Shown here: one piece after another, positions 40,275 to 58,822 of the stretch
Layout of the letters: the number at the start of each line of letters is the position of its first letter
Numbering within the stretch: position 1 is the first letter of the stretch
Assembly (NCBI GenBank): GCA_963697775.1
Contig: CAVOPH010000003.1
Span: forward strand, 151,844-215,843
Direction: 5' to 3'
DNA from: an uncultured Acidobacteriota bacterium
Lineage (GTDB): Bacteria > Acidobacteriota > Vicinamibacteria > Vicinamibacterales > 2-12-FULL-66-21
Length of the DNA: 64,000 bases
Made by a program: the position numbers and the translations under genes
Notes under the pieces: generated by a model
Seen by the model: only the letters and a program-made list of their open reading frames with translations
What the model was told of the DNA's origin: nothing
The model's database searches: none

Positions 40275-40360
40275 GTTCGTTCACGTTCTGCGAGGTTCCA
40301 CCAGGTTCGCTGAACGAACCCAGCAGAACCCAGTAGAACCCAGCCGAACCCTGTAGAACC
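40234..40360. repeat. 10-bp-phased GGTTCTRC repeat array: 8 forward and 5 inverted copies
   Basis: GGTTC or CGTTC cores occur at 40234, 40244, 40254, 40264, 40274, 40284, 40294 and 40304. Inverted GAACC cores end at 40320, 40330, 40340, 40350 and 40360. The array spans the whole gap between the convergent stop codons at 40274 and 40364. Confidence 0.9.
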
Positions 40361-41425: not shown

Positions 41426-41859
41426 TGCCCTTCAACTTTCTCCGTCCAATTCACGCCAGGGCGAAGCGGCACTATGCGCGTTGGTCTTGGCGCCGCGCCA
41501 CTTCCGCTGAAGTCCAAAACTGTTTCCACGCTCGGCGCTGGCGCCGCCTGCACCGTTCGCTGCCCCGCCACGTATCCAGCCGTGAGGCTGACGATGATGG
41601 CCGCAGCGGCGGCCATCCACCCGAAACGGGATAGAACCGAGCGGCGCTCGCACCACTGCACCGGCGTCAGCTCTGAGAGCGTGCCTACGGACTGCCTCAG
41701 GCCGATCAGGTCGACGAGATACTCGCGCACCGCCGGGTCATCGAGGGCAGCCTTCAAAGTCGCAGGATCGACTGGCTCGCCGTCGGCGAGTGCCGCCACG
41801 GCGAGGTACGAGTACTGGTTCGGCTCGGCGCTGTCCCGCTCGCCACCATTGGTCATCAC
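41422..41859 (-). CDS. putative anti-sigma factor (single-pass membrane protein)
   Basis: 145 aa with a central TM helix (FGWMAAAAAIIVSLTAGYVAG). Its start overlaps the ECF sigma stop codon by 4 nt. The call rests on position only. Confidence 0.55.
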   Translation of the reverse strand: MMTNGGERDSAEPNQYSYLAVAALADGEPVDPATLKAALDDPAVREYLVDLIGLRQSVGTLSELTPVQWCERRSVLSRFGWMAAAAAIIVSLTAGYVAGQRTVQAAPAPSVETVLDFSGSGAAPRPTRIVPLRPGVNWTEKVEGQ

Positions 41860-42377
41860 ATCTCTCCAGGGCGGATTGGCCGCCCGTCCGATCTCCCTCT
41901 GAGCACGGATCGCAGCTGCAATCGCGCGCGGTGCAGACGCGATCTCACGGCGTCAGGCGTCAGCTGACAGGCAAATGAAATTTCTTCGTAGCTGAGGCCG
42001 CCGGCTTCGCGCATCAGGAACACATCGCGATCGACGGGGCTCAACTGATCGAGCGCCTCACGAAGCGCCATTGCCAGCGGTTGTGTGGGCGGTACCGCCG
42101 GGTCAACGGCCATCTCGACCGTCTCGCCCCGTCGTCGATCGTCTCGCACGTGGTTCAGCGCGAGATTGCGTGCGATGCGAAAGAGCCACGCGCGACGGCC
42201 CCCTTCATCGGTCTCGGGAGTCCCCGAGCGCGTGACGCGGAGAAACACTTCCTGCGTCAGCTCGCGCGCATCCTCGCTGCCGACGATGCGGCACAGATAG
42301 CGGAATATGCCGTCTCGATGCGCGATGAAGAGAACGTCGGCGTCGGCCACCAAAGGGACTCTACTCAATAAGGACAC
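41856..42377 (-). CDS. ECF-subfamily RNA polymerase sigma-70 factor
   Basis: Region 2: ARELTQEVFLRV...WLFRIARNLALNHVRD. Region 4: LSPVDRDVFLMREAGGLSYEEISFACQLTPDAVRSRLHRARLQLR. Confidence 0.88.
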   Translation of the reverse strand: MSLLSRVPLVADADVLFIAHRDGIFRYLCRIVGSEDARELTQEVFLRVTRSGTPETDEGGRRAWLFRIARNLALNHVRDDRRRGETVEMAVDPAVPPTQPLAMALREALDQLSPVDRDVFLMREAGGLSYEEISFACQLTPDAVRSRLHRARLQLRSVLRGRSDGRPIRPGEM

Positions 42378-42461: not shown

Positions 42462-44426
42462 CTACGGGCGTCCCGCGGCGAGCGCCCATGTCGGAAAGTA
42501 GGCGTGATAGAGCCGGTAGTCGAGCATGGCCGTCCCGAAGAACACGCCGTTGACGGCTCCAGCCGGCCAGGATCCATCAGGGGCCTGGAGGGATTCGAGA
42601 AGAATTCGGCCGCGGCGCATAGCGTCGCAGTCAGGGTCCCCGTACGCGAGCGCCAGGACGGCCCAGCTGGTCATCACGGGCTGTGGCTGCGTGTGCGGAA
42701 CATACCTGCCGGTGAGACAGCTGGAGTAATGCTCACCCCACCCACCGTCCTCTCGTTGCAGCGCCTTGAGCCAATTCAGCGCTCGACGAATCGCCGGATC
42801 CTGACGATCGACGCCGGCAGCACGCAGTGCCTTGACGACGTGAAAGAGGCTGTAGGTGAAACAGACACCCCACGCCGCAGGAAAACGTCCGTCTGGCAGT
42901 TGACTGCGCCGAAGGAAGGCGACCGCGGAGTTCAGAGCCGCGGCGACGCGCTGATCTCGCACGTCCGGATGCGTCCGGCGCACGGTGGCAAGGGCTTCGA
43001 TCGCTGACGCCGTGCACTCGACGTACGAATGCTCCGTCATGCAGTCGCGAAACATTTCGGACGGGTTCAGGCGATCGAGCCAGGCAGGACCGCGGCTCCG
43101 TTCGTAGGTGCTGAAGCCACCGTCGTCATTCTGTCGGGCAAGCAGAAACTCGATCGCCTGGGTCACGCGCTCGACACTCAAGTGGTCGGTATCCGGGATG
43201 AGCCCCGGTACGCGTTGCATGTCGAGGATGGCCGTCAACGCTTCGGCAGTGCAGTCGCTGACCGGCCATTGATGACGACCGTCCGAGAAGCACCACCCGC
43301 CCAGAATGGGCTCGCGGTCGTGCGCCACCTCCGCCGGCAACTCGTCACGCATCTGAGCACCTGCCAGATACGAGTGCGCGCGGCGGAGACTCGCGCACGC
43401 TGCATTCAGCGTCGGCGTCGATGTGGCGTCGGCGGGCGCAACGGTCACATCTTCGAGCAAGGCGCGCGCGGCGAACGCCGTATCCCACACCTGTGACCGC
43501 GCGCCGGCGTACCGAACACCGGCTGCGGCGTCACGCCATTGCCAGTTTTCGATTCCCTCGAGGCTGGGACCGAGATCCCGGTGCGATCGATCGCGGGACA
43601 GAATGGCCAGGCAGTTCAACAAGGCATTGACCGGCGAGAGACCTTGATATCGCGACGCATGCTGTTCGTGCAGAACTTGCTCGAAGCAAGCAGCGAGCGC
43701 CCGCTGACGCAGCCTCCGCGGCATCCACGTCAACACGACGGTCAGCGCACCGCGGAAGATCGGGAGGAGAGGAGACGGCCGGGCGTATAAATCGACGTCC
43801 GACACCTCGTCGCGATGGGCGGCAAAATCGATGCGGTCGAATTGCTCCTCGTACAACTCCGTGCGAAGCGCATCCCGCAGCGCGCCGAGGTCGGCGGTGA
43901 ATTGGCAACCATACAGATATGCCATTCCCAGATAGATGTAGCGCGTGTGGCAGTACCAGTGCCTGGGGTGAAACGGCAGCCACCGCGGCAGAAGAAACAA
44001 CTCCGGCGGCACACTTCCAACACCCTTGAAGTCATACAAGCCGACGAGTGCGAGCCAGAACTTGCCCCATGTCGGAATCGCGAGGACGCCGCCGGGCTGA
44101 CGACGGAGCCACTGCCGCGCGGGCGCGGCCAACTGATCCTCCGGCGCCACACCGAGGAGCCGCAGTGCGACGTATGCCAGCGTCGTCGTGAAGATCTGTG
44201 GCGGTCCTTCGGGATGAAGTCCCCACCCACCCTCAGCGGTCTGCGTCACCGTATAGTGCTGGCGGATCTGCGCGCGATCTCTTTCATCCAGCTCTCGTCC
44301 GGTTGCATGCCGAACGATGACGTACTGCGAGAGGATCATCGTGCACCACACGACTTCTCCTTCCCACGAGCCGTCCTCGCGCTGCAGCGAACGAAGATGC
44401 TCAATCGCGAGCTCGCCCGGATTCAA
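42462..44426 (-). CDS. oxidosqualene cyclase (lanosterol/cycloartenol synthase-type triterpene cyclase)
   Basis: Multiple QW repeats: QREDGSWEG, AEGGWGL, QNDDGGFS, QLPDGRFP, QREDGGWGE, QAPDGSWP. The catalytic motif HQWPVSDCTAEAL (Asp codon 43254-43256) is the OSC type, not the SHC DxDD type. SQVWDTAF is present. The start is uncertain: the TTG at 44426 overlaps the upstream stop codon, and the ORF is open to 44654. Confidence 0.85.
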   Translation of the reverse strand: MNPGELAIEHLRSLQREDGSWEGEVVWCTMILSQYVIVRHATGRELDERDRAQIRQHYTVTQTAEGGWGLHPEGPPQIFTTTLAYVALRLLGVAPEDQLAAPARQWLRRQPGGVLAIPTWGKFWLALVGLYDFKGVGSVPPELFLLPRWLPFHPRHWYCHTRYIYLGMAYLYGCQFTADLGALRDALRTELYEEQFDRIDFAAHRDEVSDVDLYARPSPLLPIFRGALTVVLTWMPRRLRQRALAACFEQVLHEQHASRYQGLSPVNALLNCLAILSRDRSHRDLGPSLEGIENWQWRDAAAGVRYAGARSQVWDTAFAARALLEDVTVAPADATSTPTLNAACASLRRAHSYLAGAQMRDELPAEVAHDREPILGGWCFSDGRHQWPVSDCTAEALTAILDMQRVPGLIPDTDHLSVERVTQAIEFLLARQNDDGGFSTYERSRGPAWLDRLNPSEMFRDCMTEHSYVECTASAIEALATVRRTHPDVRDQRVAAALNSAVAFLRRSQLPDGRFPAAWGVCFTYSLFHVVKALRAAGVDRQDPAIRRALNWLKALQREDGGWGEHYSSCLTGRYVPHTQPQPVMTSWAVLALAYGDPDCDAMRRGRILLESLQAPDGSWPAGAVNGVFFGTAMLDYRLYHAYFPTWALAAGRP

Positions 44427-45655
44427 TAGAGTCCCGGCACGATGCGCCAGCGGACCTTCTGGCAATACGCCTCCCAATCCTGACCGTACTTGTCCAGGCA
44501 CATCCGATGGTCGCGACGTTCGCGATGGAGCAGCAGGATCAGGAAGTAGACGATATAGAAATAGGTCAACGGATGTGAGAACCCGGTCGGCAGGCACCAC
44601 GCCAGGCCCATCAGCAGGTCGCCGAAGTAGTTCAAGTGCCTCGAGACGCCCCACCAGCCCGACGTCAGCAGGAGCGCGCCGCTTCCCGTGCGAATGTAAA
44701 CCGGCGGCCGGCCCCAGACCGGACGCGTCGGGTCGCGCCGGAACCGGTGCTTCTGAATGTTCGCGCCGCGAAAGATCAGGTACCCGGCCATGTTCAAGAG
44801 GACGATTCCAGTTGTCGCGATGAAGGACAGTTCATGCGGGTGGGTCACGAGATAGTAGGCCTGCACGGTATACATGAACGGAACCCACACCAGATCGCCC
44901 CAGCACAACATCCATCCAAACCGCTCGTGCTTGATGTCCCAGGCGGTGACGATGGCTTCCTCGTGAAAGAAGTAATCAGCGACGTACAGAAACTGAAAGG
45001 CATTCACGAGAATCATCGGCGTCGTGACGAAGCCTTGGAGCTCATACTGCTTCGCCGCACAGGAAGCATCGAGAAGCACCCAGAGCATCAGGCCGGGGCG
45101 CGCCTCACAGAAGAATTTCAGATCGAGGTGTCCAATCCGCGGGTTGAGCGACACCCCAAACACATAGCCGACGATTCCACCTTTCGCCCGCGCGGCAGTC
45201 GATCGCTCCCTCTGTGACCAGAAAACGGCCGCCGCGATCGCGAATGCGGCAATGTTTGCGGTGACCAGGAGCGGACCGAATTCGTCGTATGCGATCGAGC
45301 CGCGCACCCTGCCAGACCACACGGCCACCAGCACGATCCCGATCGTGCAGACGAACGACAGCAGCCCATTCATTCGATACTCGAGCCGCGATCCGTCGGA
45401 TAGGGGCATCCCGGTCGCGGATCGGCCGGGGACGACGAAATAGAGCGCGACCTGCAGGATCAGCCACGACACGTAAAGAAGAGTCGCCGCGACGGTGGGC
45501 CGCGGCAGGTACTGATGGAGGCCGTCGCGGATCTGCGGCGCAAGCGGAGAAACCAGCGCTCCATCGAAAAACGTCAGACACAGCCAGGAGTACCAGGCAA
45601 AGACGGGAAGACCAATCAGCATCGCCGCAGCGGACAGGCGACGATCTGCAGTCAT
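44423..45655 (-). CDS. ERG4/ERG24-family sterol reductase (C-14 / C-7 / C-24(28) type; specificity not assignable)
   Basis: About 9 TM helices. The C-terminal signature LNYFGDLLMGLAWCL...LLLHRERRDHRMCLDKYGQDWEAYC matches the sterol reductase family signature (LLHRxxRDxxxCxxKYG). ATG at 45655 (MTADRRLSAAAMLIGLPVF). Confidence 0.85.
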   Translation of the reverse strand: MTADRRLSAAAMLIGLPVFAWYSWLCLTFFDGALVSPLAPQIRDGLHQYLPRPTVAATLLYVSWLILQVALYFVVPGRSATGMPLSDGSRLEYRMNGLLSFVCTIGIVLVAVWSGRVRGSIAYDEFGPLLVTANIAAFAIAAAVFWSQRERSTAARAKGGIVGYVFGVSLNPRIGHLDLKFFCEARPGLMLWVLLDASCAAKQYELQGFVTTPMILVNAFQFLYVADYFFHEEAIVTAWDIKHERFGWMLCWGDLVWVPFMYTVQAYYLVTHPHELSFIATTGIVLLNMAGYLIFRGANIQKHRFRRDPTRPVWGRPPVYIRTGSGALLLTSGWWGVSRHLNYFGDLLMGLAWCLPTGFSHPLTYFYIVYFLILLLHRERRDHRMCLDKYGQDWEAYCQKVRWRIVPGLY

Positions 45656-45713
45656 CGGCGTCGAGATTAGCGAAGTCGTGTTTCGGTGTAAACTGCGGGC
45701 TCTCCGAGGCCCG

Positions 45714-46754
45714 ATGGCTCCCTCCGCTACCCTCGTTACCGGCGCGACCGGACACCTGGGCGCAAACCTCGTCCGGCGGCTACTGCACGAAGGCGTACGC
45801 GTCCGGGTCCTGCTGCGGCCGACGCACGACCCGCGCGCGGTTGAGGGACTCGATGTCGAGCGCGCGCCTGGCGACATCTGCGACCGCGCCTCGATCGAAG
45901 CGGCGATGGAGGGCTGCGCACGGGTTTTTCACTGCGCCGCGAAGATCTCAATCACCGCCGGCGGTGAGCGCGAGATCTACGACACTAATGTGCTCGGCAC
46001 GCGCAACGTCCTCGCGGCGGCGGCACGCGCCGGCGTCGTGCGCACGGTGGTCACCGGATCGTTCAGCGCGGTGGGCCATCATCCCGATCGCCCGAGCGAC
46101 GAGCGGGATCCGTTCAACCCGTTCGCGAAAGCACTGCCGTACGAGCGGTCCAAGGCCGCCGTTGAACACGAGTGCCTGAAGGCGGCGGTGGAAGGACAGG
46201 ATGTCGTGATCGCGATCTCGTGTGCGATCGTCGGCCCTCACGACTTCAAGCCATCGCGGATGGGCCGGGTCGTGTGCGACTTCGCGAACGCCCGAATGCC
46301 CGCGTACATTCCTGGAGGGTTCGAGTTCGTTGCCGCCCGCGACATCGTGACCGGCCATCTGCTGGCGATGGAGCGTGGACGTTCGGGTCAGCGCTACATC
46401 TTCAGCACCGAATTCGTCACCGTCGATACCTTGATGCAGTGGCTGGAAGAGATCACCGGCCAACCGCGGCCGCGGCTGCGCCTGCCGCCTGCCGTGATGG
46501 CCGCGATCGCTGAAGTGGCGAGTCCGCTGCTCACGATCCTTGCGCCACATCGTCCGCAGCGCCTGACACCTGCCGCCGTTCACCTGCTCCGAATGGGCCG
46601 GCGCGCGGACTGCTCGAAGGCGAAACAGGAACTTGGCTATCAGCCCACGTCGGTCAAGGATGCCGTGCGCGACGCGTATGAATGGTTCGTCGCCAACGGA
46701 GACATCCGAAAGGTGGCGAATCCAGCGTCAGTCACCGAGACACGGAGAGTCTGA
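45714..46754 (+). CDS. extended-SDR NAD(P)-dependent 3-beta-hydroxysteroid dehydrogenase/reductase-like enzyme (SdmB/ERG26-type candidate)
   Basis: Rossmann motif VTGATGHLGANLVRRLL. Catalytic YxxxK in PYERSKAAVE. It is the first gene of the operon that includes CYP51 and the Rieske oxygenase. Confidence 0.7.
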   Translation: MAPSATLVTGATGHLGANLVRRLLHEGVRVRVLLRPTHDPRAVEGLDVERAPGDICDRASIEAAMEGCARVFHCAAKISITAGGEREIYDTNVLGTRNVLAAAARAGVVRTVVTGSFSAVGHHPDRPSDERDPFNPFAKALPYERSKAAVEHECLKAAVEGQDVVIAISCAIVGPHDFKPSRMGRVVCDFANARMPAYIPGGFEFVAARDIVTGHLLAMERGRSGQRYIFSTEFVTVDTLMQWLEEITGQPRPRLRLPPAVMAAIAEVASPLLTILAPHRPQRLTPAAVHLLRMGRRADCSKAKQELGYQPTSVKDAVRDAYEWFVANGDIRKVANPASVTETRRV

Positions 46755-48106
46755 TGACCGATTCCCCGTCGGCGACGCTGCCTCCTCTCTTGCCCGGCGG
46801 CCTTCCCTACCTTGGACACGCGTTCGAGTTCTGGAGCCGGCCAGTCGATCTGCTTCAGGCAGGTCAACGCAGGTTCGGCAGCGTCTGGAGCTTCGTGCTG
46901 GCAGGCCAGCGTGCCACCGTGCTGACAGGGCCGGAAGGGAACGAGGCCTTTTTCCGCGCGCCGGACGATGTACTCAGCGCGCGCGACTGCTACAAGTTCA
47001 CCATTCCCGTGTTCGGACCGGGTGTGGCGTACGACGTGCCGCCCGCGGAGATGGATCGCCAGCTCGCGTTCGTCCACCCGGCGCTCAGCGACAAGCGGCT
47101 GCGCAAGTACGTCGAGGTGATGGTCGAGGAGGCTGAACAATATCTGACCACCTGGGGCGACGCCGGCGAGCGGGATCTGTTCTCGACGACGCAGGACATC
47201 ACGCTCTTCATTGCCACTCGCTGCCTCCTCGGCGACGAGGTCCGCCGCCATTGCAGCACGCGGTTCGCTCAGCTCTACCACGATCTCGACGGCGGAATGT
47301 CGATCCTCGCCTACTTCTTTCCGCATGCGCCGCTGCCAGCGTTCCGGCGCCGCGATCGCGCGCGTGATGCGGTCTATGCGCTGCTGTCGGACATCATGGC
47401 GCAGAGACGACGGAATGGAGCCGCGGCGCACGAGGATTTCCTCAGCACGCTGATGGCGTTTCGCGACGAGCATGGTGCACCCCTGTCCGACAACGTCGTT
47501 GTCGGTCTGTTGCTGACGCTCATCTTTGCCGGGCAGCATACGAGCGCGGTGCTGGCGGCGTGGACCGGCATCCTGCTGCATCAGCATCCGCACTATCTGC
47601 CGCCGATTCTGGAAGAGCAGGTTCGTGAGCTTGCCGGCAACGATCTCACCACCGAGTCGCTGAAACGGCTGGTCGTGCTCGAGCGCGCGATCAAGGAAGC
47701 CGAACGGTTACGGCCGCCGCTGGTCATGCTGATGCGATCGGTTCAGCAGCCGCTTCGCGTCAACGGCTACGAGCTGCCGGTCGGTTCGCTCGCGCTTGCC
47801 TCGCCGGCGGTCTCTCACCGCCTGCCGGCGATCTACACCGAACCCGATCGTTTCGATCCCGAGCGATTCGGCCCGGGCCGGGAGGAGGATCGCCGAGCCT
47901 CGTACTCGCTGATAGGCTTCGGCGGCGGCAAGCATCGCTGTATCGGAATGGTGTTCGCCTACCAGCAGATCAAGATCATCTGGACCAGCATCCTGCGACG
48001 ATATGACATCGAGCTCGTCGAGCGCGAGTATCGGCCCGACTACCGTACGCTCGTGGTCGGCCCCTGCCAGCCGTGCCGCATCAGATACAGAAGGAGAGCT
48101 GCGTGA
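46754..48106 (+). CDS. cyp51: sterol 14-alpha-demethylase, cytochrome P450 family 51
   Basis: CYP51 signatures: YKFTIPVFGPGVAYD (B' helix and B-C loop), LTLIFAGQHTSAV (helix I) and the haem loop FGGGKHRCIGMVFAYQQIKIIW. The overall order resembles mycobacterial CYP51. The ATG overlaps the upstream TGA (TGATG). Confidence 0.9.
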   Translation: MTDSPSATLPPLLPGGLPYLGHAFEFWSRPVDLLQAGQRRFGSVWSFVLAGQRATVLTGPEGNEAFFRAPDDVLSARDCYKFTIPVFGPGVAYDVPPAEMDRQLAFVHPALSDKRLRKYVEVMVEEAEQYLTTWGDAGERDLFSTTQDITLFIATRCLLGDEVRRHCSTRFAQLYHDLDGGMSILAYFFPHAPLPAFRRRDRARDAVYALLSDIMAQRRRNGAAAHEDFLSTLMAFRDEHGAPLSDNVVVGLLLTLIFAGQHTSAVLAAWTGILLHQHPHYLPPILEEQVRELAGNDLTTESLKRLVVLERAIKEAERLRPPLVMLMRSVQQPLRVNGYELPVGSLALASPAVSHRLPAIYTEPDRFDPERFGPGREEDRRASYSLIGFGGGKHRCIGMVFAYQQIKIIWTSILRRYDIELVEREYRPDYRTLVVGPCQPCRIRYRRRAA

Positions 48107-49209
48107 CGCCCCCGACGTTCGAACAGGCACACAATCATCGCCAGCGAGTACGCGCCGCCGGCCTCAGCCCGGACCACTGGTACCCGGTCGAATGGGAGCG
48201 GAACGTCAAGCCCGGGCAGGTCATCGACACGACGTTCTGGAACCAATCAATCGCGGTCTTCCGCGGAAAGAATGGATCGCTCTATGCGGTTGAAAACCGC
48301 TGCGCGCATCGCCAGCTGAAACTCTCGCTGGGTGAGGTCGGCGACTGCACGATCACGTGCGGATACCACGGGTGGATGTACGACGGCGAGGGGCGATGCA
48401 CGCAGATGTTCCACGATCTCTTCGGTCACACGTTTCCGCGGCTGAAGATCGCGTCGTTTCCGGTCCAGGCGCGGCACGGGCTCGTCTGGATCTTTCCCGG
48501 GAACCCGGCGCTGAAAGACGAGCGGCGTATCCCGGACATTCCTGAACTGGAACAGGCTCGACCGTGGGGATCCATCGCGATCGATTTCACGTGGCGCGCG
48601 CACCACTCGATGATCATCGACAACGTCAGCGACTTCACCCACGCCTACCTGCATCGCAAGAGCAAGCCGTTCACCGATGCGAAGCTCACGATGATGGAGC
48701 CGCAGGCCGACCGCGTGCTGCTCGCGTACGACACGAAAGTCGGCCAGGGACGAATCTCAGGATTGTTCGTCGATCGAAAGCGGACGAACACGAATGCGAT
48801 GACGCTCGCCTACGAGTATCCGTATCAGTGGTCCAACACCGACGACAAGATCAAGCACTGGTGCTTCGTGCTGCCGATCGACGGCGAGACCACGCGGGTG
48901 TTCTTCATCTTCTATTTCAGCCATGAAATGCTGAAGGTGCCGCTGATTCCGCTGCGAATGCCGCGGCCGCTCATCCGCGCAATCATGGCCGCGTCAAAAC
49001 GGCTGCTGGTCAAACCGCTGCTCGAAGAGGACGGCGTCGCGGTCGAAGCCGAACAGGAAGCGTGGCGAAAGCATTACGAACAGCCGATCGCAGAACTGAA
49101 CCCTGCAGTCCATCAATTTCAGCAGCTGACCATCCGCAAGTGGGAGGAGCACCTGGCGCGATCGGTGAAGCCGAGGGCCGCTACTTCCGCTCCAGCTCTC
49201 TCCGGCTGA
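48103..49209 (+). CDS. Rieske non-haem iron oxygenase, SdmA-like (candidate sterol C-4 methyl oxidase)
   Basis: GTG start overlaps the CYP51 stop codon (GTGA), 6 nt after AAGGAGAG. Rieske motif CAHRQLKLSLGEVGDCTITCGYHGW. Mononuclear iron motif DNVSDFTHAYLH. Confidence 0.75.
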   Translation: MTPPTFEQAHNHRQRVRAAGLSPDHWYPVEWERNVKPGQVIDTTFWNQSIAVFRGKNGSLYAVENRCAHRQLKLSLGEVGDCTITCGYHGWMYDGEGRCTQMFHDLFGHTFPRLKIASFPVQARHGLVWIFPGNPALKDERRIPDIPELEQARPWGSIAIDFTWRAHHSMIIDNVSDFTHAYLHRKSKPFTDAKLTMMEPQADRVLLAYDTKVGQGRISGLFVDRKRTNTNAMTLAYEYPYQWSNTDDKIKHWCFVLPIDGETTRVFFIFYFSHEMLKVPLIPLRMPRPLIRAIMAASKRLLVKPLLEEDGVAVEAEQEAWRKHYEQPIAELNPAVHQFQQLTIRKWEEHLARSVKPRAATSAPALSG

Positions 49210-50018
49210 AGTCCTCCTCCTTCAAGCCAATGTTGTAGTGGACGTTGGTCATCGACAGCTCGGTGTGCGTCCGGGCACTCACGTCGGTCATGACGATCTC
49301 TGACAGCGTCCAGATCGATTGCACCAGATCCAGCCGCTTCACCTCGTAGACCTTTTCCTTCTCGTTGCGCCGATTGTAGATGTCCGCGTGCACGACGACG
49401 AAAGTGTCCTTCCGCACCGTCGAGACGACGCGTGGAAATCGCGCCTGCACATTTTTTGCGCGGGATTCGATTCGGTACACCGGTACCGTCTTGCCGTCAG
49501 GCCCGGCCCACGTGCCGTTCGGTTCAACCATGGTGTAGGTGTAGTCGTCGAGTTCGCGACCGCTGATGTCTTCGTAGGTAAAGTCGCTGCCGACGAAATT
49601 ATCCTGAGCTTCCGCGCCGGTAATCCTCCGCACCCGTCCCAGCGCCGGGCAGATAGAGGAACCGCTCGTCCTCCGAATCGGGGTGCTCCCACACCAGGAA
49701 CGCGGTGCCCTTGATGTCGTTCGGGTAGGTGAAACGAATCAGGATTCGATCGCCGGCATCGGTACCTTTGGCGGCTCCTCTGGCCTGCGGTCTCATCGTC
49801 TGAATCGACAATTCTCGTTCGCGGACCCGCTGCTGCCGATCGAACAGTCGCATCTTCAACTCGAAGCGGCCGTCTTTCCCGATGTCGCGATTGTCGGCCT
49901 GCCGGGCCACCCATTCCGCCGTTTCCGGTTGTGGCACCCTGGACACGGCATCTACGTAATACAACGGCAGCAGGCATGGAATCATCGCCAGGGCGAAACG
50001 TGCGCGGCACGTGACCAT
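49181..50018 (-). CDS. LolA-like outer-membrane lipoprotein-sorting family protein; frame interrupted near 49640-49650
   Basis: ILIRFTYPNDIKGTAFLVWEHPDSEDERFLYLP is followed in the adjacent frame by LGRVRRITGAEAQDNFVGSDFTYEDI...VKRLDLVQSIWTLSEIVMTD. This is the family's YLPalkrvrRI core. N-terminal signal MVTCRARFALAMIPCLLPL. Confidence 0.75.
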
Positions 50019-50094
50019 GGCCGGCGATCTTCGCCTCCCGCAAGGGAAAAGGCAAAGGGCAAAATTAAAAATCAGGCCGAAGGATATTGGCGTT

Positions 50095-51462
50095 ATGCTC
50101 AAAGCCAGTCCCGCCGTGGATGTCGAGTACGACATCGCAATCGTCGGTGCCGGCTTTACCGGCGCATTTGCCGCCGCCGCGCTTGCCGACGGCTATCGCC
50201 GCATCCTCGTACTGGACGCGCATCCCGAAGGCCGACCGCAGTTCGGCGGTGAACTGATCCACGCCGCCGGCGTGGACATCCTGATCAACCTCAAACTCTG
50301 GCCGATTCTTCAGCACGCGTCCGGCGAGCGCATTGACGGGTTCCACGTCAGCTCCGACGCCGGCGACCCGCCGGTCAGGCTTCCCTACCGCGACGTGCCG
50401 GCGCTGCGTCCCGGCGGCCTCGCGATCGAGCACCGTCAGATCGTCTCACGCGCTCGCGAGCATCTCGGGAGCCGACCGGGCGTGGACGTTCGCACGGGGC
50501 AGCGAGTCATCGACGTCATCTGGCGTAACGGTCGCGTCGCCGGCATAAAGACGGCGTCCGGCGAGCAGATCGGCGCCACGTTGACGCTGATCGCGGACGG
50601 AAGACACTCTCGCACGAGACGGGCGATCGGGATTCGGGCCCGGAAGCGCACCGTGTCGCTGAGCGCGATCATCACTGCCGAACACCAGTCCCTGCCGGAA
50701 CCGCGCTACGCCTGTATCTGTCTGGGCGCACCCGGCCCCAGCCTGGCCTACGGACTGCGCAATCGGGATGTCCGGTTCTGCATCGACGTGCCGATCACCG
50801 ACAATGTCACACGCGAGCACGTCGCCTCGCGACTTCGCAAGGAATATGCACCGCGACTCCCCAATCCGCTCCGGGCGCAGCTGCTGAGCGCGCTCGATGC
50901 GGGGCCGGTGGAGCTCTGCGGCAACGACATCGTCCAGACAGATCGGTGTACCGTCCCCGGCGCAGCCCTCATCGGCGACTCCGCCGGCTGTTCCCATCCG
51001 CTGACGGCGAGCGGGATGACCAACAGCCTCAATGACATTCGCATTCTGTCCGACGAGTTGCGCGCCGGTTCCACGCTCGATGAAGCGCTGGCCCGATACG
51101 AGGTGCGACGCTATCGATTCGTTCGGATCCGCGAGATTCTTGCGGAGGAGCTGTACCAAGCGTTCAGGGCAGAAGGCGCCGGCGAGCGCGCAATCCGCAC
51201 GGGGATCTTCCGCTACTGGCGCACGAGCGCGCATGGCCGCGCGGCGACCGTCGCGCTGCTCTCGGGCGACGATGCGCGTCTCAGTACCTTCGTCGGCGAG
51301 TACCTGCGCGTGATGCGCGAGTCGATCCACGGTACAGTGCTGCGTCCGAAGAGCGATTCGTCCCTGCGTGGTCGCGCACACTCGCTGGCAGGGCTGCTCA
51401 AGGAGTCGCTGGATCTGCTGAATCGCGTCAGCGCCGGCGTCTACACCGGCACCGTGAGATAA
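50095..51462 (+). CDS. squalene monooxygenase (squalene epoxidase)
   Basis: FAD fingerprint DIAIVGAGFTGAFAA. Motifs FGGELIHAAG and LIGDSAGCSHPLTASGMTNSLNDI, the latter corresponding to the epoxidase motif hPLTGGGMTV. Confidence 0.8.
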   Translation: MLKASPAVDVEYDIAIVGAGFTGAFAAAALADGYRRILVLDAHPEGRPQFGGELIHAAGVDILINLKLWPILQHASGERIDGFHVSSDAGDPPVRLPYRDVPALRPGGLAIEHRQIVSRAREHLGSRPGVDVRTGQRVIDVIWRNGRVAGIKTASGEQIGATLTLIADGRHSRTRRAIGIRARKRTVSLSAIITAEHQSLPEPRYACICLGAPGPSLAYGLRNRDVRFCIDVPITDNVTREHVASRLRKEYAPRLPNPLRAQLLSALDAGPVELCGNDIVQTDRCTVPGAALIGDSAGCSHPLTASGMTNSLNDIRILSDELRAGSTLDEALARYEVRRYRFVRIREILAEELYQAFRAEGAGERAIRTGIFRYWRTSAHGRAATVALLSGDDARLSTFVGEYLRVMRESIHGTVLRPKSDSSLRGRAHSLAGLLKESLDLLNRVSAGVYTGTVR

Positions 51463-51497
51463 ACAAAAGTTAAAAGTTAAAAGTTAGAAGTTAAAAG
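51463..51497 (+). repeat. heptamer tandem repeat (AAAGTTA)n immediately after a stop codon
   Basis: aaacaAAAGTTAAAAGTTAAAAGTTAGAAGTTAAAAGACC begins directly after the squalene epoxidase TAA (51460-51462). The unit is the same as in the 9817-9865 array read on its gene's sense strand. Confidence 0.9.
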
Positions 51498-51517
51498 ACC
51501 TGCGGGGTCTTCACCTA

Positions 51518-52672
51518 TCACTTCCCCCGGGCCCTACCTTCTCCCGATACAGACGACGTGGTCAGCGCCGACCCTATTGCCCAGGTTGCAATGCGGCGAA
51601 GGCGCGGGCGCTCGTAGATGCGACCGATCGCGTCGAGCACCCCGACTCTCACGGCACCGCGAAACGCATGTCCCATCAGGAACCCCGGGACAAATGCGCC
51701 CCGGCAGCGCTTGGAATACCCCTGCCATGCGTTCGACTCATCCACTCCGCCCTGAACGACTTGCGCGAGCGTCTCGGCGGCGAGCACTCCGCAGCGCATC
51801 GCCTGATAAATCCCTTCACCCGTCGCGGCGTTGGTGAGCCGCGCGGATTCGCCGACATACAGAATCCCCGGAGCCGCCACCGCCTGTGGCCAAACCGAGT
51901 GCGCAATCGGGTGTCCGGACCATCGGCCAATCGTTCGCGCCGGCCGGAGGCGATCACTGTAGTGGCGCTGAAGAAACGATTCGAAGACGGGACGCAGGCT
52001 TCCCAAATCACCGCCGCTTCCTGCGCGCCTCCCGTCCACGACGATGCCGATGTTGACGCGTGACGGAGTCTCGGGAAACATCCAGCCGTACAGCGGGCAC
52101 AGCGCTCGATCGAAGATCATCTCGAGCGTGCCTGGCTCGAATTCGAACCCCTCCCACCAGCCCATGATCGTGGCCAGCGCCTGTTTCGGCCGCGAGTCTT
52201 GCGAAAATCGCGAATGGGCGCCGTCTGCGCAGATGACGTAGTCGGCCGCGATGACTTCATCGCCGGCGCGTACGCCCGCAACCCGGCCGCGGTCATGAAC
52301 CAGCGCGGTGACCTGTACGCCATCACGAAACTGGACACCGAGCGTCCGCGCGCGATCGACGAGAAGTTGATCGAAGTCTCTGCGCAGCAGCACAACCGCC
52401 GCCTCGCCGCCAGAGAGACGCAACGTGCGCCCGCCTGGAGTCGTCAGGAGCAACGAGTGGATGGTGTAGGCCCGTGCCCGGATCGCGTCCTCGACAGCCA
52501 GGTCGGCGAGGACCCGCAATCCGAGCGGGGAGATCGCCGAGCCGCAGGTTTTCTCTCTCGGGAAACGCGCGCGATCAAGAAGGATGACGTGCTGAAACCC
52601 GCGTCGGGCAAGCGCGATTGCGGCGGCACACCCGCCAGGTCCGGCGCCGACGATGACAATCCGGTCAGCCAC
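51518..52672 (-). CDS. geranylgeranyl-reductase-family FAD-dependent oxidoreductase
   Basis: GTG start. Dinucleotide fold IVIVGAGPGGCAAAIALARRG...LLDRARFPREKTCGSAISP. The ~380 aa length is typical of the family. Confidence 0.75.
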   Translation of the reverse strand: MADRIVIVGAGPGGCAAAIALARRGFQHVILLDRARFPREKTCGSAISPLGLRVLADLAVEDAIRARAYTIHSLLLTTPGGRTLRLSGGEAAVVLLRRDFDQLLVDRARTLGVQFRDGVQVTALVHDRGRVAGVRAGDEVIAADYVICADGAHSRFSQDSRPKQALATIMGWWEGFEFEPGTLEMIFDRALCPLYGWMFPETPSRVNIGIVVDGRRAGSGGDLGSLRPVFESFLQRHYSDRLRPARTIGRWSGHPIAHSVWPQAVAAPGILYVGESARLTNAATGEGIYQAMRCGVLAAETLAQVVQGGVDESNAWQGYSKRCRGAFVPGFLMGHAFRGAVRVGVLDAIGRIYERPRLRRIATWAIGSALTTSSVSGEGRARGK

Positions 52673-52733
52673 GATGTTGGCGCTCGCGAGTCCGCGGTCT
52701 CCAGGATCCAGAGCGGAGCGCTATAGTATCGCC

Positions 52734-55517
52734 GTGCAGGGCCTCGTCCAACGACTTCTCCTCTGGAGCGTCAGGCGTCCAGCCGCCGGGGCGCTGCTCT
52801 ACATCGCCCTGACCGTGGGGTTGACGTCAGCGATCCCGCGACTCCAGATCGACGCCTCCAACGAAGGCTTCATGCTCGAGCGCGACCCTGCCCGTCAGTA
52901 CTACGAGCAGGTCAAGGGTACGTTCGGCAGCGACGAGCTCACGGTCGTCATGATCACGGCAGGCGATGTCTTTACGCCTGCGGCGCTGAAGACGATCGAG
53001 CGGCTATCCGACGCATTGCAGCGTGTCGAAGGGGTCGCTCGCGTAGACAGTCTCGCCACCGTGGACAACATCGGCGCCACCGACGAAGGAGTTGAAATCG
53101 CGCCGCTGCTCCGCGGCGGCATCCCGGAGGATCCGGCCGGACTGGCGGTGCTCAAGCGGAAAGCGCTCGCCAATGACATCTTCACGGGCAATCTCGTCTC
53201 GCCGGATGCCCGCGCGGCAGGCATCTTCGTCTACACCCAGGCGAGCGACGGCGACAAGACATTCAACGCGAGATTCTCGTCGCGGGTCGAAGATCTCATC
53301 CGCGAGAACCAATCCGCCGGTGTCGTGGTCGAGCAGATTGGCGGGCCGCTCATCAAGGCGACGGTGGCGGACTTCGTCCGCCGCGATCAGCTCACGTTGA
53401 TCCCGTTCTCGGTGGCCACGCTGTTCGTCGTGCTCATGCTCGGGTTCCGGACGCCGCAGGGCGTGATCGCGCCGCTCTTCACCGGGTTGTCGAGCGCGCT
53501 CTGGGGCGTGGGCCTGATGGCGCTTTTCCACATTCCCTTGAATGTGGTCACCGTGGCGGTTCCCTCGCTGGTGCTCGTGGTCGGATTCGCCGAAGCGGTG
53601 CACATCATCTCGGCGTATCACGCGTGCCTGCGCGCCGGCCGCGACAAGATACACGCGCTGACCGAAGCGGTTGAAGAGGCCGCGCTGCCGGTGCTCGTCA
53701 CCACGGCCACGACGATTCTTGGATTCGCGACGCTGATCTTTTCCGACATCACGATCCTCATCCAGTTCGGGTACGCCGCAACGCTGGCGTTGACGGCGAA
53801 TTTCATCGCCACGCTGCTCGGGATCCCGTTGCTGCTGCGGCTGTGGCCGCAGCCGAAGAGATTTGCGGCCACCGTGCTGGCAGAGTCGACGCCGGGTAAC
53901 GCCGTCGATCGGCGAATCGCCTCGGGCTGCGCGTTCGTGCTCCGGTATCGTGTGCCGATCGCGGCGCTCTTCATCGTGCTGGCGATTGCCTCCCTGTGGG
54001 GCTGGTACACGCTCAAGGTGGACACCGATTTCGTCAGCTACTTTCCGCGGAATTCGCCCGTCCGTCAGCGCATGCACGACGTCGATCAGGCCCTGAACGG
54101 CGCCTCGGCCTTCTTCGTCGTCGTCGAAACCGGCCGCGAGAACGGCGCCACCGATCCCGGCGTCCTGAGACAGGTGGCGGAGCTGCAGACGTTTCTGGAA
54201 GGCGTCCCCGGCATCGGGAAGACGGTGTCGATCGTGGACTACATCTCGCAGCTGAATACGACGCTCAGCGGAGTTCGCGTCGGCGCCCGCGCGGTGCCCG
54301 ACTCTTCGGAGCTGATTGCGCAGGATCTGCTGCTGATGGATCGCACGCAGATCGCACGGTTCATCGATCTGCCCGCGACCTCAGCGAACATTCTCGTCCG
54401 TCACAGCCTGACCGGTTCGTGGGAGCTGTCACAGGCGCTCCGTCAACTCGATGCCTACGTGGCGGGGCACGTTCGCGGCGTCGCGGTGCAGGCGTCGGGG
54501 CAGTCGGTGCTGACCAACCGCGCCGCCGACTACATGGCCGTCAACGAGGTCACGAGCTTCGTCTACACGCTGGCGATCATCGGGCTGATTCACTCGGCGC
54601 TGTTCCTGTCGGTGAAAGCCGGACTGCTGTCGCTCGTGCCGAACGTCATTCCCGTGATCTACAGCTTCGGCCTCATGGGGCTGCTCGACATTCCGCTGAG
54701 CACGGGCACGGCCATGGTGGCGACGATTGCGATAGGCATCGCGGTGGATGACACGGTCCACAACATGGTGACCTACAGCCGTCAGCTGAACCAACACGCT
54801 GACGAGCGGACCGCGGTGGTCCGGACCATGGCGATTCAGTTCAGGCCGATCGTGTTCGTTTCGATGGCATTGGCGAGCGGCTTTGCCGTGCTTGCATTCT
54901 CCCGTTTTGTCCCAACCGTCCATCTCGGCCTGCTGTCCGCTTTCGTGATGGTCGCGGCGATGATCTCGGAGCTCGTGCTGTCGCCGATCCTGATGGCATC
55001 GACGCGGCTGGTGACGGTCTGGGACATGCTGCTCGTGCGCATGAATCCAGACCTCGTGCGCCGGGCGCCGCTCTTCGAAGGCCTGTCGCGCTGGGAAGCG
55101 CGAAAGGTTGTCCTCACAGGAATGCTCCAATCGCTGGCGGCTGGACAGTACGCGATTCAGCGCGGCGACCAGGGACGGCATCTCTACATGGTCGTCGCCG
55201 GCCGTCTGATCGTGGTCGATTCGGATCTCGACGGCCGCGAACGCACGTTGTCTGTCGTCGGCCCAGGCGGCGTGTTCGGTGAAACGGGATTGTTGACCGA
55301 TGGCTATCGAATGTTTTCGGCCCGGGCCGAGACGGCAGCGGAGGTCCTGCGGATGGATTTCGACACACTCGATCGGTTGCGACGCCGGTTCCCCTTCACC
55401 GCGGCCAAAGTCTTCAGGAACCTCGCGCGCATCCTCGGCGAGCGGCTTCAGGACACCACGTCAGCGATGCTGTATCTCACGAGCGACACCGCACCGCGCG
55501 TCGAGCAGCAAAAGTAA
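52734..55517 (+). CDS. COG1033/MMPL (HpnN-like) RND-superfamily exporter fused to a C-terminal cyclic-nucleotide-binding domain
   Basis: There are two 6-TM bundles with periplasmic loops (IDASNEGFML...DSLATVDNI; second half VDTDFVSYFP...). The C-terminal ~125 aa (about 55060-55450) carry FEGLS...LYMVVAGRLIVV...GPGGVFGETGLL...ARAETAAEVL. The start is uncertain: GTG at 52734 or ATG at 52674. Confidence 0.8.
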   Translation: MQGLVQRLLLWSVRRPAAGALLYIALTVGLTSAIPRLQIDASNEGFMLERDPARQYYEQVKGTFGSDELTVVMITAGDVFTPAALKTIERLSDALQRVEGVARVDSLATVDNIGATDEGVEIAPLLRGGIPEDPAGLAVLKRKALANDIFTGNLVSPDARAAGIFVYTQASDGDKTFNARFSSRVEDLIRENQSAGVVVEQIGGPLIKATVADFVRRDQLTLIPFSVATLFVVLMLGFRTPQGVIAPLFTGLSSALWGVGLMALFHIPLNVVTVAVPSLVLVVGFAEAVHIISAYHACLRAGRDKIHALTEAVEEAALPVLVTTATTILGFATLIFSDITILIQFGYAATLALTANFIATLLGIPLLLRLWPQPKRFAATVLAESTPGNAVDRRIASGCAFVLRYRVPIAALFIVLAIASLWGWYTLKVDTDFVSYFPRNSPVRQRMHDVDQALNGASAFFVVVETGRENGATDPGVLRQVAELQTFLEGVPGIGKTVSIVDYISQLNTTLSGVRVGARAVPDSSELIAQDLLLMDRTQIARFIDLPATSANILVRHSLTGSWELSQALRQLDAYVAGHVRGVAVQASGQSVLTNRAADYMAVNEVTSFVYTLAIIGLIHSALFLSVKAGLLSLVPNVIPVIYSFGLMGLLDIPLSTGTAMVATIAIGIAVDDTVHNMVTYSRQLNQHADERTAVVRTMAIQFRPIVFVSMALASGFAVLAFSRFVPTVHLGLLSAFVMVAAMISELVLSPILMASTRLVTVWDMLLVRMNPDLVRRAPLFEGLSRWEARKVVLTGMLQSLAAGQYAIQRGDQGRHLYMVVAGRLIVVDSDLDGRERTLSVVGPGGVFGETGLLTDGYRMFSARAETAAEVLRMDFDTLDRLRRRFPFTAAKVFRNLARILGERLQDTTSAMLYLTSDTAPRVEQQK

Positions 55518-55518
55518 G

Positions 55519-55540
55519 AAGTTCAAAGTTCAAAGATTCA
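55519..55540 (+). repeat. short heptamer repeat AAGTTCA AAGTTCA AAGATTCA after a stop codon
   Basis: It starts 2 nt after the exporter TAA (55515-55517) and overlaps the convergent stop codon at 55538. Confidence 0.7.
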
Positions 55541-56260: not shown

Positions 56261-57865
56261 TTACTTCCGCGCCGGCTGCCCGTTCATCACGAACGCCCAC
56301 AACGTATCTCCCGCGCCGACGATCACGTACTGATTCCCATCGAGCTCGTACGTGATCGGCCCGTTGCTGACTGAGGCGTTGAGTCCCGCGTGCCACAGCG
56401 CTTCGCCGGTCGCCGCATTCAGGGCGACGAGATCGCCCGAGGCGCCGCCGCTGAAGAGCAGATTGCCGGCGGTGCTGAGCAGACCGGCGCGCGTCCCCCA
56501 CCTTCCCACGGGTGGCTCCATTTCACCTTGCCGGTCTTGTAGTCGATCGCCTGAAGCATCGATTCACCCCAGCCGCCGCGATCGGTGCCGCCCCAGCCCT
56601 GCGGATTGTCTCCGGGGTCGTAGATGTAATACACGCTGAACGCGCGCGTGGCGTTGACGTAGAAGAGACCAGTCTGCGGACTGAACGTCGGCGGCGGCCA
56701 GTTGGCGGCGCCTCCCTGGTTCGGGGTCACGAGCGCGCCGTCGATCTGCGGATGCTTCTTCGGATCGGGCACCGGCTGACCCTTTTCGTCGTAGCCCGAC
56801 GCCCAGTTCGTCTTCACGTATTCCGACGAGATGATCGCGGTACCGTTGGTGCGATCGAGCACGAAGAAGTGGCCGTTGCGCGCCGCCTGTGCGACGAGCT
56901 TGCGCGTCTGACCGTTGACCTGACCGTCGAACAGGACCGCCGTCTGCGTGGAATCCCAGTCGTGCGTGTCGTGCGGCGATGACTGGAAATACCAGTTCAT
57001 CTTGCCGGTGTCCGGATTGAGCGAGACGATTGACGCCGTGAACAGATTTGCGCCGGTACGATTGACGTGTGCGATCACCGGCTGCGGATTGCCGGTGGTG
57101 ACATACATCTGATTCAGCTCGGGATCGTAAGTGAACGGCTGCCAGGTCATGCCGCCACCGTGCTTCATCGCGTCTTCGTTCGGCCACGTGTCGGACCCGG
57201 GCTCTCCCTTTTTTTGCGGTACCACATACCACCGCCAGATCATTTCGCCGGTCTCCAGGTTGTGCGCCTGGGCGTACCCGGGAACGTCCAGGTCGTCACC
57301 GCTCACGCCGACCATGACTTTGTCCTTCACGATAATCGGCGCGACCGAACCGTAGTAGAACTGGTCGAGATCGCAGATCTGTTTGTGCCAGCGTTCGCGT
57401 TCCGTCCTTGATGTTCAGCGAGACGAGATTGCAGTCCGGGGTTTCGAAATACAGCCAGTCGCGATAGATTGCCGGGCCGCGATTGCCGATGTGAATCCCG
57501 CCTTTCGACTGCCAGATGTGGTGCCAGATCTCGCGCCCGGTCCGCGCGTCGAGCGCCCACACGTGATCCGGTGCGGTGAGATAGATCACGCCGTTGACCT
57601 GGAGCGGCGTCCCCTTGATCGCGCCAGGATTGCCGCCCCCGCCAGGATTCATTCGGTAGACCCAGCCGAGGCTCAGCGCGCCGATGTTGCCGTCGTTGAT
57701 CTTCGTCAGCGTGCTGAACCGGCGGCCGGTGTAGTCGCCGTTGTAGCTCGGCCACGAGTCCGTGCCGGGATTGAGAAGCTTCGCGGGATCGAGGCCCGTC
57801 TGCGCCGTCGTCAACATGACCGCGGCACAGACAAAACTGGACGCAGCGAATATGGCGCGTTTCAT
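56261..57865 (-). CDS. PQQ-dependent (quinoprotein) dehydrogenase; two frame interruptions (56495-56499 and about 57398-57408)
   Basis: Signal peptide MKRAIFAASSFVCAAVMLTTAQ. Beta-propeller repeats: LSLGWVYRM, PLQVNGVIYLTAPDHVWALDARTGREIW, VSLNPDTGKMNWYFQ, LQAIDYKTGKVKW, LVALNAATGEALW. Three ORFs (57296.., 56419..57330, 56261..56521) join colinearly. One junction lies in a C5/G5 homopolymer. Confidence 0.85.
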
Positions 57866-58783: not shown

Positions 58784-58822
58784 GGGTATCGTCTCCGGTC
58801 GCGCCATCATACCTTCAATAAA

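Follow-up and report, generated by a model that had tools for sequence, protein, structure and literature searches.

Among described bacterial systems, the operon of Methylococcus capsulatus (osc, smo, cyp51, sdmA/sdmB and bstA/bstB/bstC) places sterol biosynthesis genes beside RND-based transport (PMC10942540), and the 21-kb cluster of Calothrix sp. NIES-4105 holds a squalene monooxygenase (SQMO), an oxidosqualene cyclase (OSC), CYP51 and SdmAB in one locus (PMC10202945). A homologue of geranylgeranyl reductases (GGR) from the sterol cluster of Sandaracinus amylolyticus, named Bsr, acts on zymosterol and desmosterol by reducing their C-24 double bond (PMC12004948). As for transport, RND proteins are known to move hopanoids (HpnN) and sterols (BstA) (PMC10942540), and an aryl-polyene lipid cluster carries its own pair of a LolA-like and an RND protein (PMC8253772). 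Here, we describe a locus that shares traits with all of these systems, found in a 64,000-nucleotide stretch (hereafter, the window) of contig CAVOPH010000003.1, which belongs to the assembly GCA_963697775.1 of an uncultured Acidobacteriota bacterium. Nine genes, arranged in five blocks of alternating strand, span 42462-55517 of the window, and we consider it quite probable that they constitute a sterol biosynthesis cluster on the chromosome of an uncultured Acidobacteriota lineage from soil, to which a module for envelope export is attached. Open reading frames (ORFs) and searches of Pfam and NCBIfam recovered all nine at or near the coordinates given in the initial annotation:

42462-44426, minus strand: OSC, 654 aa (TIGR03463)
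44423-45655, minus strand: ERG24-type sterol C-14 reductase, 410 aa (Pfam ERG4_ERG24)
45714-46754, plus strand: SdmB-like extended short-chain dehydrogenase/reductase (SDR), putative decarboxylase/reductase partner in C-4 demethylation, 346 aa (NF052578)
46754-48106, plus strand: CYP51 sterol 14-alpha-demethylase, 450 aa, without ferredoxin fusion (Pfam p450, 195.2 bits)
48103-49209, plus strand: SdmA-like Rieske oxygenase (4-methylsterol monooxygenase), 368 aa (NF052579)
49181-50018, minus strand: LolA-like periplasmic protein ("outer membrane lipoprotein-sorting protein"), frameshifted (Pfam LolA_like)
50095-51462, plus strand: SQMO, 455 aa, of a divergent bacterial clade (Pfam SE)
51518-52672, minus strand: GGR-family, Bsr-like flavoprotein (TIGR02032 and motifs)
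52737-55517 (longest ORF from 52653, 954 aa), plus strand: RND-superfamily exporter (HAE3/MMPL-like) with a C-terminal cyclic nucleotide-binding domain (CNBD) (Pfam)

It had been claimed that this locus encodes a pathway from squalene to a demethylated sterol, and all six enzyme classes are indeed matched by family, motif and solved structure. Family membership, catalytic motifs, conserved synteny and purifying selection are direct observations in what follows. The cyclase was assigned to the OSCs and not to the squalene-hopene cyclases (SHC) by the gaps between profile and solved-structure scores, which agree with the original call: it scores 825.6 bits on TIGR03463 (osq_cycl) versus 249.5 on TIGR01507 (hopene_cyclase), and 406 bits with human lanosterol synthase (LSS, 1W6K) versus 173 with SHC. 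The acid motif VSDCTAE is found at residue 389, and the DxDD motif of SHC type was not found in the protein. This acid motif had been described as eukaryote-type, but the same motif or a one-residue variant occurs in every bacterial OSC printed from an 83-sequence alignment and, at the level of these sequences, it is a general OSC motif without eukaryote specificity. The identification of the squalene epoxidase also stands, as the protein scores 108.4 bits on Pfam SE (PF08491, cutoff 20.1), has the human SQLE (6C6N) as its nearest solved enzyme (86.6 bits, residues 13-406) and contains the flavin motifs GAGFTG and GDSAG.

The P450 had been placed in CYP51 on the basis of three signatures, and these are present as YKFTIPVFGPGVAYD in the B'-helix, AGQHTS in helix I (residue 259) and FGGGKHRCIG in the heme loop (residue 389). 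Its best 56 matches among solved structures of the Protein Data Bank (PDB) are all CYP51 (378 to 214 bits), with the M. capsulatus enzyme at the top (378 bits), while the first P450 of another family, CYP120, scores 145 bits. The reductase encoded next to the cyclase reaches 413.7 bits on Pfam ERG4_ERG24 (PF01222) and matches the Methylomicrobium delta14-sterol reductase MaSR1 (4QUV) over its full length (490 bits, residues 11-410). As had been noted, it carries an exact family signature, namely sterol reductase signature 2 (LLLHRERRDHRMCLDKYG); signature 1 has no exact match in this protein. The similarity to MaSR1 suggests that its specificity would be for C-14, and not for C-7 or C-24(28).

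The Rieske oxygenase and the SDR protein had been compared to SdmA and SdmB, and these are the best-matching families of each. The SDR protein scores 367.6 bits on NF052578 over 326 of 328 positions (next, HpnA with 288 bits) and has the motifs GATGHLG and YERSK. The oxygenase scores 388 bits on NF052579 over 342 of 351 positions (next family, 39 bits), contains the Pfam domains Rieske and VanA_C, and displays both the Rieske ligands CAHRQ...CGYH (CxH...CxxH) at residue 67 and the mononuclear iron motif DNVSDFTHAYLH at residue 173; it is 55-63% identical to cluster-linked homologues of other phyla. SdmAB are known to demethylate C-4, one methyl group being removed in methanotrophs and two in Calothrix (PMC10202945). 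The window SdmA and SdmB are about equally distant from the methanotroph and Calothrix groups, and so may remove either one or two C-4 methyl groups.

A separate observation concerns the SQMO, whose identity to the OSC-adjacent SQMOs of other phyla (loci L002-L080) is only about 30%. It belongs to a clade with 45-97% identity that is abundant in metagenomes and includes proteins annotated as Polyangia by the source records. There may, then, be more than one SQMO lineage serving bacterial sterol clusters.

When compared with the M. capsulatus operon, the window has the same SQMO, apparently lanosterol-type OSC, CYP51, MaSR1-type C-14 reductase and Rieske/SDR system for C-4 demethylation, and the biosynthesis genes are likewise found beside RND-based transport. 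In fact, the best solved matches of the window CYP51 and ERG24 are methanotroph proteins, and SdmA and SdmB are about 55% identical to those of Methylococcaceae. By contrast, the window CYP51 is not fused to a ferredoxin, a Bsr-like C-24 reductase is present, there is no homologue of BstB (a phosphonate-type periplasmic binding protein) or of BstC, and the RND protein, with 32 bits on the BstA model, has a cytoplasmic CNBD and a LolA-like periplasmic partner. The Calothrix cluster, which holds SQMO, OSC, CYP51 and SdmAB together as the window does, differs by the presence of a C-8 isomerase and further tailoring genes. The SdmA and SdmB of two Scytonema loci (L052 and L058) are 60-61% identical to those of the window, and a GGR homologue adjoins SdmB in L058. 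The LolA-like/RND-CNBD pair was not seen in the cyanobacterial loci examined.

Although the initial annotation was right about the family of the GGR-type flavoprotein (TIGR02032 GG-red-SF, 164.9 bits with a cutoff of 158.8; MenJ, 75 bits), it had listed it simply as interleaved with the sterol genes and had missed its likely role as the C-24 reductase. The conserved catalytic features of Bsr are a YxWxFP motif and an active-site Cys (PMC12004948, Lee & Welander 2025). As in the Sandaracinus protein, both are found in the window flavoprotein, as YGWMFP at residue 195 and KTCG at residue 41, and they align with YIWVFP and RCGEG of its best solved match, the archaeal GGR 3OZ2. Similar genes are found inside the sterol clusters L003, L043, L058, L060 and L084-L086, with 36-46% identity in the four loci of other species (L003, L043, L058 and L060) and 65-93% within the window clade. 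Together with the similarly placed FAD-binding flavoproteins of L089 and L092, which were judged by Pfam FAD_binding_3 matches and position only, GGR-like genes are co-located with sterol genes in at least six lineages. The window gene is likely to encode a C-24 sterol reductase of Bsr type. Bsr has been reported mainly from Myxococcota and Cyanobacteriota, and its putative extension to an Acidobacteriota-type genome is newly added here.

The two remaining genes could constitute the trafficking arm of the locus. The RND protein is matched by the Pfam families MMPL (78.4 bits), Sterol-sensing (28.4 bits), Patched (27.3 bits) and, at residues 826-911, cNMP_binding (PF00027, 65 bits). All its NCBIfam matches are under cutoff: HAE3 with 175 bits, HpnN with 85 (TIGR03480, cutoff 752), BstA with 32 (NF045600, cutoff 1400) and NF052374 with 19.6. 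By its sequence, it is a member of the RND superfamily that falls outside both the BstA and HpnN families. The earlier call of an RND exporter thus holds at the level of the superfamily (MMPL, HAE3), but the C-terminal CNBD had been overlooked. The longest ORF starts at 52653, while the gene call of L081 points to a GTG at 52737 as the probable start. No close solved relative of the membrane part was found in the PDB search. The C-terminal domain matches the CNBDs of the CRP family, PKA-R and SthK with 42.7-55.5 bits (best of each), and its phosphate-binding cassette has the FGE...R pattern (FGETGLLTDGYR), followed after the Arg by MFSA, which departs from the usual R-[ST]-A. The MMPL and cNMP_binding fusion is kept in more than 100 homologue clusters, whose carriers are annotated in the source records as Methylomirabilota, Rokubacteria, Limnocylindrales, Syntrophales, Mariprofundus and Myxococcota. 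Well more than 100 homologue clusters at 60-97% identity were found for SQMO, the RND protein and the LolA-like protein.

The presence of a LolA-like protein had been correctly noted; its true gene, 49181-50018, is frameshifted. Positions 3-37 of Pfam LolA_like (PF17131) match the ORF 49599-50135 and positions 40-184 (118 bits) match the ORF 49181-49633, the reading frame being broken by an extra base near 49634-49650 (in the alignment with L081, a single insertion near 49650). Orthologues with 94-99% protein identity are intact and 278 aa long: where they continue as ...YLPALGRVRRITG..., the window reads ...YLPGAGTGAEDY and stops. In a longer view, the window reads ...FLYLPGAGTGAEDY-stop, whereas the orthologues read ...FLYLPALGRVRRITGAEAQ... 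in one 278-aa protein. A profile of these orthologues against PDB sequences matched 9TP6 (146 bits), 3BK5 (98 bits) and 4Z48 (95 bits). The AlphaFold2 model of the orthologue P0029, built on a 24-sequence alignment, had a mean pLDDT of 49.3, too poor for a fold search. The longest ORF of the gap (49339-50055, minus strand) was discarded as spurious: it is Arg-rich, lacks a family match and overlaps both LolA-like fragments.

In the window clade, the LolA-like and RND-CNBD genes lie between sterol genes and not at the edge. They adjoin sterol genes again in a second lineage (L028, L089 and L092) in which the RND protein is about 50% identical and the gene order is different: a secreted protein of about 430 aa, LolA-like, RND-CNBD, ERG2, ERG24, SQMO, GGR-like flavoprotein, OSC, SdmA, CYP51 and SdmB. 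What is new here is this pair, which is distinct from BstABC and recurs in the sterol clusters of two or more diverged lineages; it is also the only part of the locus without a characterised counterpart. Some analogies can nevertheless be drawn. HpnN is also an inner-membrane RND protein encoded with triterpenoid genes, and moves a polycyclic triterpenoid to the outer membrane; unlike the window protein, which matches its model with 85 bits against a cutoff of 752, it has no CNBD, and its proposed partners are HpnM/S/T and not a LolA-like protein (bioRxiv 10.1101/2025.07.29.667474). In the aryl-polyene system, a lipid cluster has its own LolA-like (ApeL) and RND (ApeM) proteins, with a proposed role in outer-membrane placement, as in the window (PMC8253772). 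By contrast, the lipid is of another class, there is no CNBD, and the LolB-like ApeN has no window counterpart; the transport role is likewise a proposed one.

The secreted protein is conserved, has about 430-447 aa and belongs to no Pfam family; in other lineages, its gene lies ahead of the LolA-like and RND-CNBD genes (L089, 7862-9184; L092, 7863-9167; L028, 16857-18104; L090, 7627-8970; L093, 4224-5507). This suggests that the three form a three-part envelope system.

From these assignments, we infer all substrates and products, how many C-4 methyl groups are lost and the whole transport step. Squalene, supplied from elsewhere in the genome, would be epoxidised by SQMO, and OSC would cyclise the 2,3-oxidosqualene, most likely to lanosterol. 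The 14-alpha-methyl group would then be removed by CYP51 and the resulting delta-14 bond saturated by the ERG24-type reductase. One or both C-4 methyl groups would be removed by SdmA, the Rieske oxygenase, together with SdmB, the SDR protein, and the C-24 double bond of the side chain would be saturated by the Bsr-like flavoprotein. The cluster has no C-8 isomerase, C-5 desaturase or C-7 reductase (DHCR7), so that the pathway is expected to end in a delta-8 sterol (for instance, 4-methylzymostenol or zymostenol) and not in cholesterol. The RND protein would remove this sterol from the inner membrane and hand it over to the LolA-like carrier in the periplasm, which would move it towards the outer membrane, and export could be tied to a nucleotide signal through the cytoplasmic CNBD.

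The relatives L081, L082, L084 and L086 have these genes in the same order. L081, a metagenome contig that ends before OSC, is 96% identical in nucleotides. The nine-gene order is kept in L084, an NCBI metagenome-assembled genome (MAG), with 60-84% protein identity, and L086 shows seven of the nine genes before its contig ends, with 65-77% protein identity. The ratio of nonsynonymous to synonymous substitutions (dN/dS) against L081 is 0.05-0.24 for every gene compared (that is, without OSC, which is beyond the end of L081). Because of this shared order and these dN/dS values, the arrangement is not a matter of chance. Packing is tight as well, with overlaps of 1-4 bases at ERG24/OSC and at SdmB/CYP51/SdmA. 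For instance, the start of OSC overlaps the stop of ERG24 by 4 bases (ATGA), and SdmB, CYP51 and SdmA form one overlapping run, with the SdmB gene translationally coupled to CYP51 and SdmA.

Two further observations were made among these relatives. OSC and ERG24 are 60-67% identical to those of L001, L082 and L084, versus 77-88% for SdmB, CYP51 and SdmA. This looks like rate variation, which is favoured because the pseudouridine synthase is also only 68% identical, although the OSC-ERG24 block could have been replaced. Downstream of the RND gene, L086 (8752-11249; also L085, 5491-7988) has genes for a GFO/IDH/MocA oxidoreductase and a GMC oxidoreductase; the window lacks both, and they could serve in additional sterol tailoring.

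The setting of the cluster is chromosomal, the flanking genes being ordinary ones (mreB, uvrA, amt and Ser/Thr kinases). In the window, matches above cutoff were obtained for the ADOP permease (675 bits) and acidobact_VWFA (166 bits), two protein families first defined from Acidobacteria, and the nearest species-representative locus is that of an Acidobacteriota MAG, whose SdmB, CYP51 and SdmA are 77-83% identical. These data agree with the original description of the genome as Acidobacteriota-like. A recent horizontal acquisition was considered and rejected, as the GC content is flat over the whole window, the flanks are syntenic with those of L082 and there is no sign of an island.

The initial annotation had also held that a single compact locus is unusual and that bacterial sterol genes are often scattered. 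Neither view can be maintained. We used the window proteins as queries on the 80 best OSC loci, one genome per species, and recorded a gene when it was at most 10 kb from OSC. SQMO was found in 54/80 loci and CYP51 in 46/80; SdmA and SdmB were found together in 33/80, with CYP51 in 24/80, and with both CYP51 and ERG24 in 17/80. All six enzyme classes were present in 15 of the 80 loci. These 15 are spread over about ten phyla, with representatives of Rokuibacteriota, Acidobacteriota, Alpha- and Gammaproteobacteria, Cyanobacteria, Streptomyces, Chloroflexota/Dehalococcoidia, Nitrospirales and Opitutales. The Acidobacteriota locus L043, from a MAG, has all six classes plus a GGR/Bsr-like gene. 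These numbers are in line with Lee et al. 2023, who regarded the dispersed genes of Enhygromyxa as exceptional among bacterial sterol producers, in which the genes are otherwise clustered, and listed acidobacteria among the bacteria with genes for C-14 and C-4 demethylation (PMC10202945). Likewise, CYP51 has been found in more than 1,000 bacteria of nine phyla (PMC7947880). Compact sterol clusters are, consequently, already common in uncultured bacteria, and the cluster as such leaves current understanding unchanged.

Several observations weigh against the reading of this locus as a sterol cluster with an export module. On the biosynthetic side, the cyclase is just under the curated subfamily cutoff of TIGR03463 (825.6 bits versus 851), and SdmA (388 bits) and SdmB (367.6 bits) are both below the equivalog cutoff of 600 of NF052579 and NF052578, respectively. 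The redox partners of CYP51 and SdmA were not found in the window scans, nor were squalene synthase, HpnCDE or SHC among the window ORFs scanned, short ORFs being covered incompletely, and no lipid data were found in the literature for the host organism or any Acidobacteriota. On the side of transport, the RND protein is only remote to BstA (32 bits) and HpnN (85 bits), the LolA-like gene of the window is frameshifted, and no homologue of the probable third component of about 430 aa occurs in any part of the window. In L082, Bsr is missing together with the first ~720 residues of the RND protein, of which a 209-aa CNBD remnant is left (11417-12085), while L085 (~3400) and L086 (~6660), from two samples, share a +1 frameshift of the RND gene at a GGGGG run. 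Copies of the RND-CNBD and LolA-like genes, 31-43% identical, occur without nearby sterol genes in L090, L091 and L093. As for the product of the cyclase, three alignment positions commonly serve to tell lanosterol from cycloartenol synthases. The product-linked positions of the window OSC read A/H/V in the 83-sequence alignment, exactly as in Methylococcaceae OSCs and in those of three heterocystous cyanobacteria (Scytonema, Fischerella). The equivalent of human V453 is a Val, as in lanosterol synthases, while the Ala at the equivalent of human T381 is typical of neither lanosterol nor cycloartenol synthases. The use of lanosterol by Methylococcaceae, Methylococcus in particular, is documented (PMC7947880), and the Calothrix OSC makes lanosterol on expression (PMC10202945). 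Because the A/H/V triad is the same as in the Methylococcaceae and heterocystous cyanobacterial OSCs, lanosterol is favoured as the putative product, with moderate confidence. It could be argued that the cyclase yields instead a non-sterol or a cycloartenol- or arborane-type triterpenol, so that the downstream product would not be a lanosterol-derived sterol: besides the Ala at the T381 position, cycloartenol, parkeol, isoarborinol and eudoraenol synthases are all found among bacterial OSC clades, and the clade alone does not give the product (PMC12324236). However, together with the Val and the shared triad, CYP51, the C-14 reductase and SdmAB make sense only on a 14-methyl, 4,4-dimethyl sterol scaffold, and we regard such a product as highly improbable.

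A sterol-trafficking role of the LolA-like/RND-CNBD pair is plausible, the evidence being that of neighbourhood, and we would place its chances at about even. A bolder model, which we advance only tentatively, would see in the pair a second sterol-trafficking system, unrelated to BstABC, with export gated by a cyclic nucleotide or other small ligand at the C-terminal domain and with a secreted partner of about 430 aa in some lineages. Alternatively, the pair may be a general exporter of envelope lipids or hydrophobes that merely neighbours the sterol genes, with biosynthesis as described. The module, with its third gene of about 430 aa, is indeed found away from sterol genes, in L090 (a Limnocylindrales-type contig without them), in L091, where it adjoins TamAB/Mla, and in L093, near HMG-CoA reductase and a ketosynthase; there are homologues in Mariprofundus and Syntrophales; L082 keeps the whole enzyme core and has lost the transporter; and, within 10 kb of OSC in the 80 species-representative loci, an RND match was found in 3, a LolA-like match in 4 and both in only 2. 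By contrast, sterol genes flank the pair on both sides in the window clade, and L028, L089 and L092 have it beside sterol genes as well, although divergence is about 50% and the gene order is different, the RND membrane region matches the sterol-sensing and Patched profiles, and the RND gene is under purifying selection (dN/dS 0.13), so that we see a general exporter as possible but on the doubtful side. A different explanation is that the cluster, or its trafficking arm, is decaying, the LolA-like frameshift being real and sterols no longer exported or made. In addition to this +1 frameshift, separate lesions affect the same module in relatives, namely the L082 deletion and the RND frameshift of L085 and L086 at the G5 run in two samples. 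Nevertheless, the other eight genes of the cluster are all intact, and the two halves of the LolA-like gene show dN/dS values of 0.10 and 0.21 against L081, which indicates purifying selection. Frameshifts are also found in the window in the PQQ-dependent dehydrogenase (56419-58810), with +2 and +1 insertions (56486 and 57399) relative to the intact L081 gene, and in the housekeeping gene uvrA (31438-35386), the N- and C-terminal parts of which are in different frames with a shift near 33100-33220. At least four such lesions in 64 kb (LolA-like, twice PQQ dehydrogenase, and uvrA) suggest indel errors of long-contig assembly. Because PQQ dehydrogenase and uvrA are also frameshifted and both LolA-like halves are under purifying selection, we think that an assembly indel is likelier than a true LolA-like pseudogene, and decay of the cluster seems improbable to us.

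One further block lies directly downstream of OSC, on the same strand:

40364-42377, minus strand: ECF (extracytoplasmic function) sigma factor (41856-42377; Sigma70_r2/r4_2; TIGR02937, 62.7 bits) and two unannotated ORFs

The two ORFs encode 145 and 353 aa, and the genes of the block have 4-base overlaps. In L082, which is syntenic, the block is missing and OSC directly adjoins the pseudouridine synthase gene. The block may be a co-transcribed regulator that possibly belongs to the system, or an inserted regulatory module with a possible anti-sigma factor. Scans of 40-56.5 kb gave no sigma-70 promoter-like sites, and terminator-like sites at chance level. The divergent intergenic regions 45656-45713, 50019-50094 and 52673-52736 share no word of 9 or more bases.

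Two kinds of repeats were also observed in the window. AT-rich heptamers (AAAAGTT or AAGTTCA, 3-7 copies) form tandem arrays directly past three stop codons, those of SQMO (51465-51497), the RND gene (55519-55540) and an aldehyde dehydrogenase (9817-9863). Each array has the orientation of the gene that it follows, and a short hairpin lies behind the one at SQMO. The pattern AAGTTMAAAGTT has 8 matches versus 0.06 expected, and these arrays are possibly 3'-end or terminator elements. Intergenic repeats with a 10-base period (GGTTCTGCAA) are found at 40234-40360, 37641-37749 and 58823-58902, bracketing the sterol region, and are followed by the reverse complement GAACCCAGCA at two of the three sites. 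The array between the pseudouridine synthase gene and the 353-aa ORF forms a long hairpin (-72.7 kcal/mol, z = -7.9). The 10-base-period arrays may be REP-like (repetitive extragenic palindromic) or bidirectional terminator elements.

With this locus, a near-complete and evidently selected sterol pathway, including a putative Bsr-type reductase, is now placed in a soil Acidobacteriota lineage that is abundant in metagenomes, which bears on the attribution of both sterane biomarkers and soil sterol pools. The transport and regulation of bacterial sterols have been called largely unknown by Lee & Welander 2025 (PMC12004948), and the LolA-like carrier and the CNBD-fused RND exporter are a testable candidate for both. 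If the ligand-gated model were true, the RND protein would be the first lipid exporter of its superfamily to be gated by a ligand, and bacteria would have a counterpart to the sterol-sensing-domain proteins.

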